Shown here piece by piece: positions 1,624 through 6,358 of a DNA stretch of 6,902 nucleotides. Each line of letters starts with the position of its first letter. Positions within the stretch are counted from its first letter, which is position 1. The DNA comes from a virus (lineage: Duplodnaviria > Heunggongvirae > Uroviricota > Caudoviricetes). Below the pieces are notes generated by a model. That model was not told the origin of the DNA, did no database searches, and saw nothing but the letters and a program-made list of their open reading frames with translations. The DNA is taken from the IMG/VR virus record IMGVR_UViG_2671180849_000001; one strand, written 5' to 3'. The translations under genes and the position numbers were made by a program.

Positions 1624-1721
1624 TTTTTATAAGCGTCGACGGCCTCACGAAACATCTTTTCATCGCCAATAAAAGTGGCGATAGTGAATTTAGTCTGGAT
1701 AGCCATAAGTGTTTGATCCAT
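1578..1721 (-). CDS. kil: Kil, host cell-division (FtsZ) inhibitor, 47 aa; canonical copy
   Basis: ATG at 1721..1719 gives [47 protein letters not shown]. It overlaps the gam start by 46 nt, the lambda arrangement. It is the C-terminal 47 aa of track ORF 1578..1826. Confidence 0.8.
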
Positions 1722-1810
1722 TTTTTGGGACTCCTGGCTGATTAAGTATGTCGATAAGGCGTTTCCATCCGTCACGTAATTTACGGGTGATTCGTTCAAG
1801 TAAAGATTCA
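1608..1810. repeat. Tandem direct repeat, unit 1 of 2 (period 203 bp); this copy carries lambda-type sequence
   Basis: Plus-strand cagtattaatatccattttttataagcgtcgacggcctcacgaaacatcttttcatcgccaataaaagtggc... at 1608 recurs at 1811. Identity runs 1608..1809 versus 1811..2012 with five substitutions, all between about 1681 and 1721. Confidence 0.9.
1690..1810 (-). pseudogene. cIII: 5'-truncated second copy of cIII (codons ~15-54, no start codon) left by the duplication
   Basis: Sequence from the junction down to the canonical cIII stop (plus-strand TTA at 1690..1692) encodes ...[37 protein letters not shown] in the cIII frame, but nothing in that frame initiates it. Confidence 0.6.
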
Positions 1811-1924
1811 CAGTATTAATATCCATTTTTTATAAGCGTCGACGGCCTCACGAAACATCTTTTCATCGCCAATAAAAGTGGCAATAGTGAATTTTGTCTG
1901 GATAGCCATAAGTTTTTTATCCAT
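1808..1924 (-). CDS. kil: Second kil allele in the duplicated unit, 38 aa (MDKKLMAIQ...KKWILIL), ending at a TGA created at the duplication junction
   Basis: ATG at 1924..1922, which is the canonical kil start shifted by 203 bp. Relative to copy 1 it has Q3K and T4K and lacks the last 9 residues. It is part of track ORF 1808..2050. Expression is not known. Confidence 0.45.
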   Translation of the reverse strand: MDKKLMAIQTKFTIATFIGDEKMFREAVDAYKKWILIL

Positions 1925-2013
1925 TTTTGGGGACTCCTGGCTGATTAAGTATGTCGATAAGGCGTTTCCATCCGTCACGTAATTTACGGGTGATTCGTTC
2001 AAGTAAAGATTCG
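1811..2013. repeat. Tandem direct repeat, unit 2 of 2; variant copy
   Basis: Same 203-bp unit directly abutting unit 1. It differs from unit 1 by five substitutions (on the plus strand: g>a, a>t, g>t, g>t, t>g) and no indels. Confidence 0.9.
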
Positions 2014-2057
2014 GAAGGGCAGCCAGCAACAGGCCACCCTGCAATGGCATATTGCAT
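1917..2057 (-). CDS. cIII: CIII (inhibitor of FtsH-mediated CII degradation), 46 aa; stops 8 codons early relative to the 54-aa lambda CIII
   Basis: Reverse complement from the ATG at 2057..2055 reads [46 protein letters not shown] then TAA (plus-strand TTA at 1917..1919). AAGGAG Shine-Dalgarno (plus-strand ctcctt at 2064..2069). The stop arises from a tca>taa substitution within the variant repeat copy. Confidence 0.75.
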   Translation of the reverse strand: MQYAIAGWPVAGCPSESLLERITRKLRDGWKRLIDILNQPGVPKNG

Positions 2058-2129
2058 GGTGTGCTCCTTATTTATACATAACGAAAAACGCCTCGAGTGA
2101 AGCGTAATTGGTATGCGGTAACGCCGCGC

Positions 2130-2498
2130 TCAGGCGGCTTTGATAGTCATATCATCTGGATCAAATATTCCTGATGTATCGATATCGGTAATTCTTATTC
2201 CTTCGCTACCATCCATTGGAGGCCATCCTTCCTGACCATTTCCATCATTCCAGTCGAACTCACACACAACACCATATGCATTTAAGTCGCTTGAAATTGC
2301 TATAAGCAGAGCATGTTGCGCCAGCATGATTAATACAGCATTTAATACAGAGCCGTGTTTATTGAGTCGGTATTCAGAGTCTGACCAGAAATTATTAATC
2401 TGGTGAAGTTTTTCCTCTGTCATTACGTCATGGTCGATTTCAATTTCCATTGATGCTTTCCAGTCGTAATCAATGATGTATTTTTTGATGTTTGACAT
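2130..2498 (-). CDS. ea10: Ea10 (lambda Ssb-like early protein), 122 aa
   Basis: ORF-track protein MSNIKKYIIDYDWKASMEIEIDHDVMTEEKLHQINNFWSDSEYRLNKHGSVLNAVLIMLAQHALL... recognised as lambda Ea10. Its offset from gam equals the lambda offset plus 203 bp. Confidence 0.9.
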   Translation of the reverse strand: MSNIKKYIIDYDWKASMEIEIDHDVMTEEKLHQINNFWSDSEYRLNKHGSVLNAVLIMLAQHALLIAISSDLNAYGVVCEFDWNDGNGQEGWPPMDGSEGIRITDIDTSGIFDPDDMTIKAA

Positions 2499-2518
2499 CT
2501 ATTCATATCCTCATAGAT

Positions 2519-2544
2519 AAAAAATCGCCCTCACACTGGAGGGC
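2519..2544 (-). terminator. Rho-independent terminator candidate on the leftward transcript, about 20 nt upstream of ea10 (a tL2-like position)
   Basis: Minus strand reads GCCCTC-cagtgt-GAGGGC (6-bp GC stem, 6-nt loop) followed by gaTTTTTTaT. In lambda, N-modified transcription reads through such sites. Confidence 0.5.
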
Positions 2545-2680
2545 AAAGAAGATTTCCAATAATCAGAACAAGTCGGCTCCTGTTTAGTTACGAGCGACAT
2601 TGCTCCGTGTATTCACTCGTTGGAATGAATACACAGTGCAGTGTTTATTCTGTTATTTATGCCAAAAATAAAGGTCACTA

Positions 2681-2881
2681 TCAGGCAGCTTTGTTGTTCT
2701 GTTTACCAAGTTCTCTGGCAATCATTGCCGTCGTTCGTATTGCCCATTTATCGACATATTTCCCATCTTCCATTACAGGAAACATTTCTTCAGGCTTAAC
2801 CATGCATTCCGATTGCAGCTTGCATCCATTGCATCGCTTGAATTGTCCACACCATTGATTTTTATCAATAGTCGTAGTCAT
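2681..2881 (-). CDS. ral: Ral, restriction alleviation protein, 66 aa
   Basis: ORF-track protein MTTTIDKNQWCGQFKRCNGCKLQSECMVKPEEMFPVMEDGKYVDKWAIRTTAMIARELGKQNNKAA recognised as lambda Ral. Confidence 0.9.
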   Translation of the reverse strand: MTTTIDKNQWCGQFKRCNGCKLQSECMVKPEEMFPVMEDGKYVDKWAIRTTAMIARELGKQNNKAA

Positions 2882-2951
2882 ACGGATAGTCTTGGTATTG
2901 TTCCATCACATCCTGAGGATGCTCTTCGAACTCTTCAAATTCTTCTTCCAT
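2865..2951 (-). CDS. Small acidic ORF (28 aa, MEEEFEEFEEHPQDVMEQYQDYPYDYDY) overlapping the ral start; same position and size as lambda orf28
   Basis: ATG at 2951..2949 preceded by GAGGTG; TGA at 2867..2865. Length and overlap with ral match lambda orf28. It is too short to appear in the ORF track. Confidence 0.55.
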   Translation of the reverse strand: MEEEFEEFEEHPQDVMEQYQDYPYDYDY

Positions 2952-3155
2952 ATATCACCTCAAATAAGTTGTTTGCTGCGAAAGTAAATACGCTTAAGTT
3001 ACCTGTTATTTATCCCACCAAGTTCCGTATCTATCTATCTATCCAGTTACACCAATCATCGACACTCCATTTTGTTGTGTCGCATTTTTGCAACTGGCAT
3101 GAATATCTACCTTCTTTGTAAAGTCGGCGTTTGACTTTCTTGAGCATGGCTCACC

Positions 3156-3497
3156 TCAATCGTAATAAGCTGGAATTGATTTTCCGCGTTGCTTCTGGCG
3201 GCCTGAGCAAGTCACACCCATTTCACTGCGTGGCTTGCGGTAGTAAATACGGTTCTGTTTACGCTCGACTTCTTCTGCCTTCTGGCAGCGAAGGCTTCCG
3301 AGTGATATTGCTTTTTCAGAAAGGCTTAAACGTTTTCTCGGGGCTTCCTGAACAGGTTCCTCACTGTCTGTGCCGAAGATCGAATCGATGATGTTGCATA
3401 TAGCATCACGCTCGATAGCCAGCTTTCTGCGCCGCTCATGACGGCGAGTTTTGGCATTTCCTGCAAATGTTGATTTCCCGTACACGATTACCGTCAT
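3156..3497 (-). CDS. N: N-family transcription antiterminator, 113 aa, with a P22 gene-24-type arginine-rich motif
   Basis: Internal ATG at 3497..3495 of track ORF 3156..3581, preceded by GAGGA. Product starts MTVIVYGKSTFAGNAKTRRHERRRKLAIERDAICNIIDSIFG, matching the P22 N ARM peptide GNAKTRRHERRRKLAIER. The C-terminus ...AEEVERKQNRIYYRKPRSEMGVTCSGRQKQRGKSIP resembles lambda/phage-21 N. P22-type boxB lies upstream. Confidence 0.85.
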   Translation of the reverse strand: MTVIVYGKSTFAGNAKTRRHERRRKLAIERDAICNIIDSIFGTDSEEPVQEAPRKRLSLSEKAISLGSLRCQKAEEVERKQNRIYYRKPRSEMGVTCSGRQKQRGKSIPAYYD

Positions 3498-3651: not shown

Positions 3652-3776
3652 TGCCAATCTGTTCCGTTTGGCTGCCAGCATCCTGCTGACGGCGATAATA
3701 ATGAACTAATAGTTCGATATTATCAAGAACTGCAAGTACGAGATTTTGCAACTCTTTAATTTTATTAGATAAGTTT

Positions 3777-3805: not shown

Positions 3806-3910
3806 AGATTGAAGATTGGTCTGTAGGGGAGAAAGGACTGTATTGCTGGCGTGTTAGTTCGTGGGTTAGCACATATGCGGATGTTAAATAGGGGAGGCGA
3901 ACGTGAGGTA

Positions 3911-3942
3911 AAGAAAACCCGGCGCAGAGGCCGGGTTTTTCT
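3911..3942. terminator. Bidirectional rho-independent terminator immediately downstream of the accessory cassette
   Basis: Plus strand reads aagAAAA-CCCGGC-gcagag-GCCGGG-TTTTTct: a 6-bp GC stem flanked by an A-run on one side and a T-run on the other, so it is terminator-like on both strands. It abuts the stop codon (3941..3943) of the 258-aa gene. Confidence 0.7.
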
Positions 3943-4717
3943 AGGCTACCAGAGAGTCAATCCAAGAGTCTCTGGTATGGAATGGCAACACTCGTGCGGT
4001 ATCATTAAATAGTAGTGATAGTTGCTGTAGCTCAGGTGTTAACCCATCGCTGTCAACTATTACAAATCTATTGTTTATGTCAGGAACGACCTGACTTAAG
4101 TCAACAATCTTCCCAACTGTTGAGTGGGCAGTATTCCATCCTTTACTGCTGGCAAGGCTTACCGTAAACCCGCGTTTTGGTGGTATTAGTCGAGACTCAT
4201 TCCTTAGCGTTAACGGAACAGTAATGTTATGCCCACTAATACCTTTCACTTTTTCCTTTAAGGCTAGTCGCTTCCCAAGCCCTGCTGATTTTAAGTAACT
4301 GATTACACATTTTTCGAACTTATCGTCTTTGACCTCAGCATACCAATCAGCAGTTTGGGCGGATGCAAGAATCCCACCACGAATAACATTTGCAGTTACC
4401 TGTCCAACGGACGACTCATCTGCCCACGCAGATATCTCTCCAGAGTCATTTAATGAAATTCCTTGCGAAGCGAGTGATGACCTGATCAGATCAATTTTCT
4501 TTTTAGTCAGGTGGATGCCGCGTGATTCAATATTCATCAATGTATCGCAGTAGTCTGTAACCCTATACTGACCACTCATCTCTTGAACGAATACGCTTAT
4601 CTGCTCACAATCATCGTAGTATGTGAAGGGACTAATAACGCGCAGCAACGTGTCGCTCATTGGGTGGCATTCAAACCCGAGCTTAGATATGACTGTTGAA
4701 CACGTTACATTTCCCAT
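3941..4717 (-). CDS. Hypothetical protein, 258 aa, no family recognised; downstream gene of the two-gene cassette at the rexAB-equivalent locus
   Basis: Track ORF MGNVTCSTVISKLGFECHPMSDTLLRVISPFTYYDDCEQ.... The ATG at 4717 overlaps the upstream gene by 13 nt (coupled arrangement). An alternative start is the ATG at 4660 (MSDTLL...), which has no clear Shine-Dalgarno. No long hydrophobic segment, no Walker motif. Confidence 0.7.
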   Translation of the reverse strand: MGNVTCSTVISKLGFECHPMSDTLLRVISPFTYYDDCEQISVFVQEMSGQYRVTDYCDTLMNIESRGIHLTKKKIDLIRSSLASQGISLNDSGEISAWADESSVGQVTANVIRGGILASAQTADWYAEVKDDKFEKCVISYLKSAGLGKRLALKEKVKGISGHNITVPLTLRNESRLIPPKRGFTVSLASSKGWNTAHSTVGKIVDLSQVVPDINNRFVIVDSDGLTPELQQLSLLFNDTARVLPFHTRDSWIDSLVA

Positions 4718-5247
4718 GATAGCTGACCTGATTTATCTTGATTCGGTAAAGGTGGGCTGCCTTCATATATGATATTAAGCGCCTCGCAAAAATAATTCCA
4801 GTAGCCAAAAAAATCATCTGGCTTGATGTTCGTTTCAAGCTTGAGTGCAATTTCTTCCCCAGCTGATTCGAAGTACATGTGATAGTGAGGACCTCGAGCC
4901 ACCTCAACAAAATCTGGATGGTGCACTATAGATTTATTACGGTGTGACTTGTTATGCGCAGGGTACGGGTCAAGCGCGTAAATGCGCCTGTCATGAAGAA
5001 ACATCACAAATGAAAGCTTCACTATATCCACCCCTTCAACGATAGGAGAACGCCAGTGAAGCATAAATCTTATGCCTGTGATTGGGTTGCCAATTTCATC
5101 AAAAGCTTTGAGATCCAATTTAAACCAGATTGGGGTTCGTCCCTCACTTCCGGTCCACGAAACTCCGCTAAAAGTTACTTTTTTCAAGCGAGTAATAGCT
5201 TGGTCAACCTCTTTCTGGGTAGGCTTAAAGTCGCCTTTTTTAGCCAC
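4705..5247 (-). CDS. Hypothetical protein, 180 aa, no family recognised; His-rich central segment; upstream gene of the cassette
   Basis: Track ORF; the first codon is GTG (plus-strand cac at 5245..5247), preceded by GGTGAT 9 nt upstream. Product MAKKGDFKPTQKEVDQAITRLKK... contains FLHDRRIYALDPYPAHNKSHRNKSIVHHPDFVEVARGPHYHMYFE. Same strand as cI, directly downstream of it. Confidence 0.7.
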   Translation of the reverse strand: MAKKGDFKPTQKEVDQAITRLKKVTFSGVSWTGSEGRTPIWFKLDLKAFDEIGNPITGIRFMLHWRSPIVEGVDIVKLSFVMFLHDRRIYALDPYPAHNKSHRNKSIVHHPDFVEVARGPHYHMYFESAGEEIALKLETNIKPDDFFGYWNYFCEALNIIYEGSPPLPNQDKSGQLSWEM

Positions 5248-5344
5248 TGATTCGTATCACCATGAAAGTTATTGTTAATACCTATGCTTCTTGTCACCCA
5301 AACGTCTCTTCAGGCCATTGGTTACCAGCTATGTGACGATGAAG

Positions 5345-6052
5345 TCACGAACTTTTAATCCATTCCCTTGCCTCGATGTCATCTAGGTGGCGAGATTGCT
5401 TCAAAATACCAGCCACATACTCCACCTTTGCTACTTGATGATAAGGCAACGTTATTGGCCTGTGGTCTTGATTGATGCTTGTAAATTGGTATTCTCCGTC
5501 TCTGTCATAGCCAAGAACCTTGATCATGTTGTGCCCTTCAATGGTTCTGACAAACACTTCATCACCTGGGAATACTTTGGTGTTAGGCTCAATGAGTACA
5601 TATTCTCCTGATTTAATTCTGGGCCACATGCTGTCTCCTTTTACACGAAGACCAAAGGCATCTGGATCATCGCTATAAATCTTGAGCCACCCATCGCGCT
5701 CTTCGGTCATCTCGATGGCACCATCAACACCAAGAATTGCCTCACCAACCACGCGCACTAACCCTTTTTTTAATTTGCCAACAATTGAAAAAGTATCTTC
5801 ATCATTCGCTCCATTTAACGAAGTGCCGTGCTGAAGCCAAACAACATCAACGTTTAGAAATTTCGCAAGCGCATTCATTTTTTCCTGGCGTGGTAAAGAC
5901 TCAGCATTAAACCATTTGCTAACGCCTTTGGACGAAAGAGAAAGGGCACGGGCTATGGCCATTCCCCTACCATGTTCATCAAGACCAGCTTCTTTACAGG
6001 CTTGCGCTAGCCGCTGGGCGAATTCTTTGCGCACTTTTTCATTCTGAACCAT
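5345..6052 (-). CDS. cI: CI-type prophage repressor, 235 aa: N-terminal HTH domain plus C-terminal LexA/S24-like autocleavage domain; not lambda immunity
   Basis: Track ORF MVQNEKVRKEFAQRLAQACKEAGLDEHGRGMAIARALSLSSKGVSKWF... with C-terminal ...LRVKGDSMWPRIKSGEYVLIEPNTKVFPGDEVFV..., the S24-type Ser-containing motif. Divergent from cro across an operator region. Confidence 0.9.
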   Translation of the reverse strand: MVQNEKVRKEFAQRLAQACKEAGLDEHGRGMAIARALSLSSKGVSKWFNAESLPRQEKMNALAKFLNVDVVWLQHGTSLNGANDEDTFSIVGKLKKGLVRVVGEAILGVDGAIEMTEERDGWLKIYSDDPDAFGLRVKGDSMWPRIKSGEYVLIEPNTKVFPGDEVFVRTIEGHNMIKVLGYDRDGEYQFTSINQDHRPITLPYHQVAKVEYVAGILKQSRHLDDIEAREWIKSS

Positions 6053-6130
6053 GAGTACGATACTAAAGCACTTGCAAAAACTTTCAGTTCAATCATAATG
6101 CGTACTGAAAGTACGAAAAAGGGTATTCCT
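6053..6130. promoter_or_regulatory. OR / pRM-pR divergent control region with dyad-symmetric operator candidates and a pR promoter
   Basis: pR on the plus strand: -35 TTGCAA (6072..6077), 16-bp spacer, -10 CATAAT (6094..6099). Palindromes: CGTACTgaaAGTACG (6101..6115), AGTAcgaTACT (6054..6064) and the dyad CTTTCAGT...ACTGAAAG (6081..6111). The cI ATG lies a few bp from the left operator candidate. Confidence 0.5.
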
Positions 6131-6358
6131 ATGCAAAATCTTGATGAGCCGATTAAAGGTGTCGGCATCCCTGAAGTTGCGAAGGCTTGTGGAGTTAGCG
6201 AAAGGGCTGTCTATAAGTGGCTCAAAAACGGCTTCCTCCCTAAGACTGAGTTTTTTGGGAAAACTAAATACGCATCAAAAATCGAAGAGATTTCTGGTGG
6301 CAAATATCAAGCAAGCGAAATGCTTGAAATAAGCAAAAAGAACCTTCTGGCTGCATAA
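6131..6358 (+). CDS. cro: Cro-type repressor, 75 aa, HTH
   Basis: Internal ATG at 6131 of track ORF 6098..6358 gives MQNLDEPIKGVGIPEVAKACGVSERAVYKWLKNGFLPKTEFFGKTKYASKIEEISGG.... First gene of the rightward operon, divergent from cI. Confidence 0.8.
   Translation: MQNLDEPIKGVGIPEVAKACGVSERAVYKWLKNGFLPKTEFFGKTKYASKIEEISGGKYQASEMLEISKKNLLAA

Follow-up and report, generated by a model that had tools for sequence, protein, structure and literature searches.

A 6,902-nt stretch of Caudoviricetes DNA (IMG/VR record IMGVR_UViG_2671180849_000001), hereafter the window, corresponds to the early-left and immunity region of an Escherichia coli lambdoid prophage, and between its cI-type repressor gene and its N-type antiterminator gene it carries two same-strand genes, which we call A (180 aa, GTG start; 4705-5247, minus strand) and B (258 aa; 3941-4717, minus strand). 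We read A-B as an accessory module of the prophage that would be read through together with the repressor in the lysogen and would act against phages, and we place the probability of this reading at about 0.5. A role in defence, taken by itself, is about an even bet or slightly better; it is the best reading of the pair because of the position shared with RexAB and BstA, the homology to the phage defence candidate family PDC-M24, and the defence or candidate-defence genes that lie beside the pair or its relatives. Any specific mechanism is hypothetical and considerably less probable than the defence role.

An earlier reading of the bare nucleotide sequence (the sequence-only reading) had proposed two genes directly downstream of cI, overlapping by 13 nt and closed by a strong bidirectional terminator, in the slot that holds rexAB in lambda, and each of these points held up. 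Both frames are present in the open reading frame (ORF) list and in the PGAP annotation, which makes the same start call for A. The stop codon of A and the start codon of B overlap by 13 nt (ATGGGAAATGTAA; 4705-4717, minus strand), and an overlap of 13 or 4 nt is retained in nearly all related loci, which implies translational coupling. A GC-rich hairpin at approximately 3908-3942 (minus strand; folding energy -21.4 kcal/mol, z = -3.29) is predicted to act as an intrinsic terminator closing the cI-A-B unit. Its sequence, AAAAACCCGGCCTCTGCGCCGGGTTTTCTTT, begins immediately 3' of the B stop codon, none of 200 shuffled sequences was equally stable, and with an A-run upstream and a U-run downstream it could terminate transcription in both directions.

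On the other side of the cassette, the repressor gene (5345-6052, minus strand) encodes 235 aa with a helix-turn-helix (HTH) domain and an S24 self-cleaving peptidase domain (Pfam Peptidase_S24, E 3.5e-16; HTH_3, E 1.2e-5; phrog_4, transcriptional repressor) and is presumed to be the first gene of the PRM operon. The 97-nt spacer between cI and A (5248-5344, minus strand) contained no minus-strand terminator-like or promoter-like site in our scan, no significant RNA structure (z = +0.40 relative to shuffled sequences) and no hairpin followed by a U-run, so that read-through from the repressor promoter would be expected. Downstream of the terminator lies an OL/pL-like region (3698-3739, minus strand), in which a pattern search and a promoter scan place two operator-like palindromes overlapping a sigma-70-like promoter, followed by the N-type antiterminator gene (3156-3497 from the PGAP start, with the open frame reaching 3581; minus strand; Pfam N_peptide, E 1e-25; phrog_271). 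This order of cI, A, B, terminator, OL/pL and N therefore matches the layout cI-rexA-rexB-terminator-pL-N of lambda.

The likeness to RexAB is one of position and organisation, namely two genes after cI, one transcription unit, a terminator before OL/pL and N, and an expected expression in the lysogen. It does not extend to the proteins. As the sequence-only reading had surmised, neither A nor B resembles RexA or RexB: searches of both against Pfam, NCBIfam and PADLOC returned no Rex model at E up to 1. RexB spans the inner membrane several times (PMC8585504), whereas no membrane-spanning stretch is present in either protein here, as had likewise been noted from the sequence: the highest Kyte-Doolittle hydropathy over 19 residues is 1.22 in A and 0.79 in B. 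A Rex-like membrane depolarisation is therefore unlikely. BstA of the Salmonella prophage BTP1 is an abortive infection gene that also lies downstream of cI (PMC8585504), but it is a single protein accompanied by a self-immunity DNA element, aba, and the PADLOC model scan detected no BstA homology in A or B. An assignment of the pair to RexA/RexB, to BstA or to any named defence family was considered and rejected, as PADLOC returned only PDC-M24 models and NCBIfam none. A-B shares its place with RexAB and BstA and belongs, by sequence, to neither family.

Published work describes the interval between cI and N as a hotspot of mosaicism, with RexAB and BstA among its contents (PMC8585504), and the expectation of varied cargo at this locus is borne out by phage 1H12 (L152). 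Its genome and the window match at the 3' end of cI and on the terminator side, and their cI genes are equally long. Between these flanks, the slot of 1H12 (1641-2540, minus strand) encodes an unrelated protein of 299 aa that has a single predicted membrane segment and no PADLOC match. Slot cargo is thus exchangeable. Stacking of cargo can also occur: in Providencia (L003, L004, L056-L060) and Izhakiella (L007) loci, a gene for a 113-aa DUF3024 protein (~5044-5393) separates the repressor region from the A-B pair. With its match to PADLOC PDC-S43 (E 6e-37), this protein shows that more than one candidate defence gene can occupy the slot.

The pair keeps its position behind repressors of different kinds. 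Among 88 close loci recovered with B (8 GTDB genomes and 80 IMG/VR contigs), a repressor with HTH and S24 domains lies directly upstream on the same strand in 76, and an HTH-only repressor does so in one further locus (~77/88 in total); by sequence, the HTH-S24 repressors form at least seven clusters. In phage ev207 the pair sits between a LexA-family repressor and N. In the E. coli O104:H4 strain HUSEC2011 (L153, region 5001-7067), from the 2011 outbreak lineage, a cassette 98.9% identical to that of the window follows a different LexA-family repressor, in a prophage that also encodes RecE and a Rac-type Kil. Comparison of these sequences indicates that the module is exchanged between repressor types. 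The sequence-only reading had instead argued for horizontal acquisition from base composition, and this argument fails: at 43.5% GC the cassette falls within the range of the immunity genes (cI 44.8%, cro 41.8%, cII 46.1%), and it is exo/bet (52.7%) and gam (50.5%) alone that stand out by a higher GC content.

A more distant pair is found in the D3-like Pseudomonas phage VB_PaD_phPA-G (L151), where it stands behind a CI-like repressor. Its A-like ORF (2420-3004, plus strand; A-family profile, E 1.5e-30) is unannotated and shares 4 nt with the beginning of the B-like gene, which does have an annotation. A gene for a 216-aa protein with a weak PADLOC PDC-S48 match (E 3e-6) lies between the repressor gene and the pair.

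Wherever B was recovered, A accompanied it. An A homologue lies immediately upstream of B in all 88 close loci, which places paired homologues at the repressor-adjacent position in most of them. To sample more distant relatives we searched metagenomes, at the DNA level, with a degenerate pattern of the HEHxW...GYAEP motif of A; it covers only one branch of the A family (58 loci with an A-like ORF, in 8 clusters). A is directly upstream of B in 55 of 55 such metagenome loci with room for both genes, the B match extending over nearly the full profile length in most of them, and three more end at a contig edge. The overlapping frames together with this absolute co-occurrence suggest that the two proteins form a complex. 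Both genes are under strong purifying selection, with ratios of nonsynonymous to synonymous substitution rates (dN/dS) of 0.06-0.10 and synonymous sites that are often saturated.

The module is common in E. coli. The window allele is present in 61 of 5,426 complete genomes and the ev207 allele in 241, the latter including the type strain ATCC 11775, so that ~5.6% of complete E. coli genomes (302 with intact copies, O104:H4 among them) carry one of the two alleles. Five cultured phage isolates (ev207, ev017, PhiR63_2, PhiR57_1 and Stx1_121427) carry a variant pair whose B is 51% and whose A is 40% identical to the window proteins. When 50,697 phage records were searched with the cassette by megablast, only the flanks gave matches, and it was the protein-level search that gave the 51%-identical allele. 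No homologue of B was found on any of 72,556 plasmids. Two atypical copies were also seen. In an IMG/VR locus (L053, 2588-3896) A is split into two ORFs and B is shortened, the cassette being otherwise 100% identical, and this appears to be a decaying copy. A 518-bp contig labelled Actinomadura rugatobispora (L009) carries an enterobacterial-type A-B junction with 57% identity to B and is probably contamination rather than a true actinomycete homologue.

The clearest link to defence is homology to PDC-M24. Phage defence candidates (PDCs) were found through their recurrent embedding in known defence loci; some have since been shown to be protective, and PDC-M24 was not in the tested set. The only PADLOC matches of A and B are the PDC-M24A and PDC-M24B models. 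All 21 members of the B family match PDC-M24B (best E 8e-10), with the ev207-type B aligning end to end (positions 5-254 of the 256 in the profile, E 7e-10) and a metagenome B matching over the full length (E 5e-9), and 6-8 of 31 members of the wider A family match PDC-M24A (best E 2.5e-9). The two systems are alike in having two proteins of similar size (profiles of about 147 and 255 positions, compared with 180 and 258 aa here), the same pair of domains (DUF6978-like and DUF1828), and components that are adjacent, co-oriented and overlapping at stop and start, as in the 88 close and 55 distant loci. They differ in that the A-B branch rides on prophages, at the cI-N slot. These comparisons identify A-B as a putative divergent, prophage-borne branch of the PDC-M24 candidate family. 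PDC-M24 is itself likewise only a candidate, with no published test or mechanism.

Some neighbours of distant relatives point in the same direction. In a distant metagenome cluster of 11 loci (represented by L130, 5704-8095) the A-B pair adjoins a type III restriction-modification system, with a Mod protein of 540 aa that contains a DPPY motif and a Res gene that runs off the end of the locus. Other neighbours are a TIR-domain protein, a PDC-M14A match, an addiction-module antitoxin gene (near one relative) and a terminase. This association with defence genes is suggestive.

Protein B belongs to phrog_1960 (E 6e-119), a PHROG family without an assigned function, and its AlphaFold model consists of two domains (mean pLDDT, the predicted local distance difference test score, 81). 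The N-terminal domain (aa 1-125; 4343-4717, minus strand) is modelled with a type III secretion chaperone or YbjN-like fold and contains DUF1828, which matches residues 30-112 at 40.9 bits compared with a Pfam gathering cut-off of 22 and is matched by 21 of 21 B-family members. This domain is presumed to be a sensor that binds a protein or peptide. The C-terminal domain (aa 130-258; 3941-4330 including the stop codon, minus strand) shows in the model the alpha-beta-beta-beta-alpha-beta core of the restriction-endonuclease-like, or PD-(D/E)xK, fold. No DUF1829 or other Pfam model matched it in the 21 members, even at E up to 1. The family alignment, which reaches members of ~25% identity and includes Pseudomonas phage and metagenome copies, has G159, S161, G162 and H163 (a GxSGH motif at 159-163), W194, G202, D206 and R217 invariant and position 222 acidic throughout. 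Strand 2 of the fold starts with the invariant SGH, and on strand 3 neither an acidic residue nor a lysine is conserved. The model thus gives B a domain with a nuclease fold, and nuclease activity itself would be hypothetical.

Protein A likewise falls into a PHROG family without function (phrog_2017, E 9e-73). Its AlphaFold model is beta-rich and confident (pLDDT 86; predicted template modelling score, pTM, 0.83), and no structural match to it was found; the A- and B-family profiles gave no sequence match to any chain in the PDB at E up to 10. When 1.84 billion representative proteins were searched exhaustively by profile, only 42 clusters reached E <= 1e-3, and the A family is therefore rare. 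The relation to DUF6978 appears distant, at the level of a superfamily only: the window protein scores 21.1 bits, below the gathering cut-off of 29.6, and 4 of 31 wider A-family members match DUF6978 at E <= 1e-3. Across the wider family W31, R88, H121, H123 and P168 are invariant, and K22, D93, H102, N104 and F153 are nearly so. The cluster D93, H102-x-N104 and H121-x-H123 therein persists at 20-40% identity. A C-terminal G-Q-x-x-L motif is also conserved, and residues 171-180 are predicted to be disordered (pLDDT below 50). We considered whether conservation of this tail reflects only the ribosome-binding site of B, the invariant G-Q codons lying ~12-17 nt 5' of the B start, and rejected this, as the codons lie beyond the usual Shine-Dalgarno position and are kept at 20% identity, which makes constraint at the protein level likelier; the ATGA overlap partly constrains the final residue of A. 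The A-family profile also matched 12 separate short stretches of a 1,089-aa protein (P0059), the best covering profile positions 91-109 (the D-P-Y-P...H-x-N segment); the protein may consist of repeats of this motif.

The sequence-only reading had described both proteins as belonging to no recognised family, which does not stand, since B is a DUF1828 protein above the Pfam gathering score and both have PHROG families. Its suggestion of a novel defence candidate survives in part: defence is the best reading, but the word novel was an overstatement given DUF1828, phrog_1960, phrog_2017 and the PDC-M24 relatives.

A working model can be assembled from these features. In a lysogen, transcription from the repressor promoter would extend into A and B, as it does into rexAB in lambda. 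B would combine sensor and effector in one chain: the chaperone-like DUF1828 domain would bind a protein or peptide, and the restriction-endonuclease-like domain would provide the output through a non-canonical site (GxSGH, D206, R217 and the acidic residue at 222). A, with its new fold and its D/H/N/H/H cluster, would form a complex with B, possibly docking its disordered C-terminal tail into the DUF1828 domain in the way that secretion chaperones bind extended peptides. A phage product might then displace or alter the A-B contact and so switch on nucleic-acid cleavage or an enzymatic activity of A itself, and the infecting phage would be blocked through exclusion or abortive infection. A conceptual model is offered by HepS of Gifsy-1 and Tha of Staphylococcus aureus prophages, in which a nuclease reportedly stays inactive until a phage structural protein binds its sensor (PMC13043305, PMC11087260). 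The likeness to A-B is limited to the idea of a prophage nuclease triggered by a phage protein: HepS and Tha are single-protein HEPN RNases, whereas A-B would combine a restriction-endonuclease-like output domain with an obligatory partner.

Several points weigh against an anti-phage module of this kind. The window proteins themselves match PDC-M24 weakly, A to PDC-M24A at E 1.5e-3 over no more than positions 85-135 of the 146 in the profile and B to PDC-M24B at E 6.3e-7 over the N-domain only, and matches of this strength would not be expected to yield a PDC-M24 call. Co-transcription of the pair with cI is inferred from the sequence. In the seven loci sampled, distant relatives have varied surroundings, housekeeping genes (UvrB, an aminotransferase) among them. 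The literature that we searched contains no experimental evidence of defence for the A-B pair or for PDC-M24; it does not mention PDC-M24, gives no function for DUF1828 or DUF6978, and has nothing functional on the WP accessions, the PHROG identifiers or phages derived from ECOR13. Finally, the family alignment does not allow a canonical D...(D/E)xK triad to be identified in the C-domain of B, and K181 is not conserved, being lost in distant members; the nuclease-fold domain may therefore be inactive or otherwise employed. The absence of an identifiable acidic/lysine triad also separates B from the PD-(D/E)xK nucleases Can2/Card1 and NgoMIV/Cfr10I/PspGI; B has no sequence similarity to any solved chain and no CARF domain.

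The missing triad bears on how the labour is divided between the two proteins. Many restriction-endonuclease-fold domains are non-catalytic, and the pair could defend with its roles reversed, A being a metal-dependent hydrolase effector (D93/H102/N104/H121/H123) and B a sensor or adaptor whose nuclease-fold domain is dead. The histidine cluster is indeed the most conserved feature of A across its wide family, and the lack of a recognisable triad in B, with K181 variable, fits the same idea. We nevertheless regard this arrangement as unlikely, though it survives best among the alternatives: A has no relative, by structure or by sequence, of known activity, and the C-domain of B retains the invariant polar set S161, H163, D206 and R217 with the acidic residue at 222.

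Position next to a repressor also raises the idea that A-B serves the life cycle of the phage itself, through induction or repressor cleavage, through DNA processing in the lysis-lysogeny decision or by countering host defences. Genes beside a repressor are often regulatory, the nearby pL-operon genes ral and gam are counter-defence genes, and viable cultured phages carry the pair. We consider such a function improbable. The predicted terminator would insulate A-B from the pL operon and leave it in a transcription unit shared with cI; the pair is dispensable, because the 1H12 slot has unrelated cargo; its occurrence behind at least seven repressor types means that it is not bound to one regulatory circuit; and distant relatives occur outside any obvious phage context, beside a type III restriction-modification system.

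Somewhat less probable still is a toxin-antitoxin-like addiction or stabilisation module, or a host-directed function of lysogenic conversion. The layout of the pair is of the toxin-antitoxin kind, with two small genes that overlap, a probable coupling of their translation and a nuclease-like fold encoded by the second; the pair would be expressed by the prophage, and an addiction-module antitoxin gene lies near one distant relative. A is large for an antitoxin, however, and has no DNA-binding or antitoxin-family match; for type II systems in particular, Pfam, NCBIfam and PADLOC gave no match to an HTH, ribbon-helix-helix, AbrB or toxin family for either protein. The PADLOC matches of both proteins are limited to the PDC-M24 models, and the plasmid survey found no copy of the pair, though addiction modules are common on plasmids. 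Toxin-antitoxin and abortive-infection roles can also coexist. That A and B are chance frames or functionless remnants, for which only the split A and truncated B of L053 speak, is refuted by the purifying selection with its saturated synonymous sites, conservation from Enterobacterales to a Pseudomonas phage and metagenomes, confident AlphaFold2 models and 302 complete E. coli genomes with intact copies.

At least 80% of the length of the window is matched by 19 complete E. coli genomes, and the best of these cover all of it at 99.8% identity. In PS1Thumoskin9 the annotation runs exo, bet, gam, kil, cIII, DUF2528, ral and N, followed by B, A, cI, a cro-like HTH regulator, cII and replication genes; PGAP names B there a 'DUF1828 domain-containing protein', A a 'hypothetical protein' and cI an S24 family peptidase. 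In the window the cro-like gene lies at 6131-6358 (plus strand). The pL-like promoter reads TTGATA-17-CATTAT (3726-3698, minus strand), and the operator-like palindrome GWACTNNNAGTWC occurs twice on the OL side (3703-3715 and 3727-3739) and once on the OR side, between cI and the cro-like gene (6102-6114). These are the only three matches in the whole window, compared with 0.01 expected by chance, and they are probably the OL and OR operators of the repressor type present here. A copy with one mismatch, AAACTTTCAGTTC, is found near 6078-6090.

The kil-cIII region contains a 202-nt tandem duplication (1608-1809 and 1811-2012, 98% identical) that gives rise to two Kil-type ORFs of almost the same sequence. 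A single copy of the unit is present in the best-matching E. coli genomes, which are ~207 bp shorter than the window, and the duplication could be either a real recent event or an assembly artefact. The lambda cIII thermoregulator element (RF01804; 2012-2070, minus strand, 88.5 bits) is the sole Rfam family above its gathering score in the window, and the cassette itself yielded no hit in the Rfam and tRNA scans.

Since the slot, the general idea and the standing of the family as a candidate had all been described before, the pair should cause specialists no great surprise. Its new elements are the consistent location next to the repressor, seen with at least seven repressor types, the interpretation of the domains of B and the lack of any structural relative for A. 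The pair is directly testable, as it is carried by cultured phages (ev207, ev017) and by ATCC 11775. Should it not defend, it would be another conserved prophage accessory pair of unassigned role, at a frequency of ~5.6% in complete E. coli genomes that include the O104:H4 outbreak lineage and the type strain. Should it defend, it would be a further system from the hotspot that yielded RexAB and BstA, it would provide the first function for DUF1828, for DUF6978-like proteins and for PDC-M24, and, as A has no structural relative, the chemistry of A could be new.

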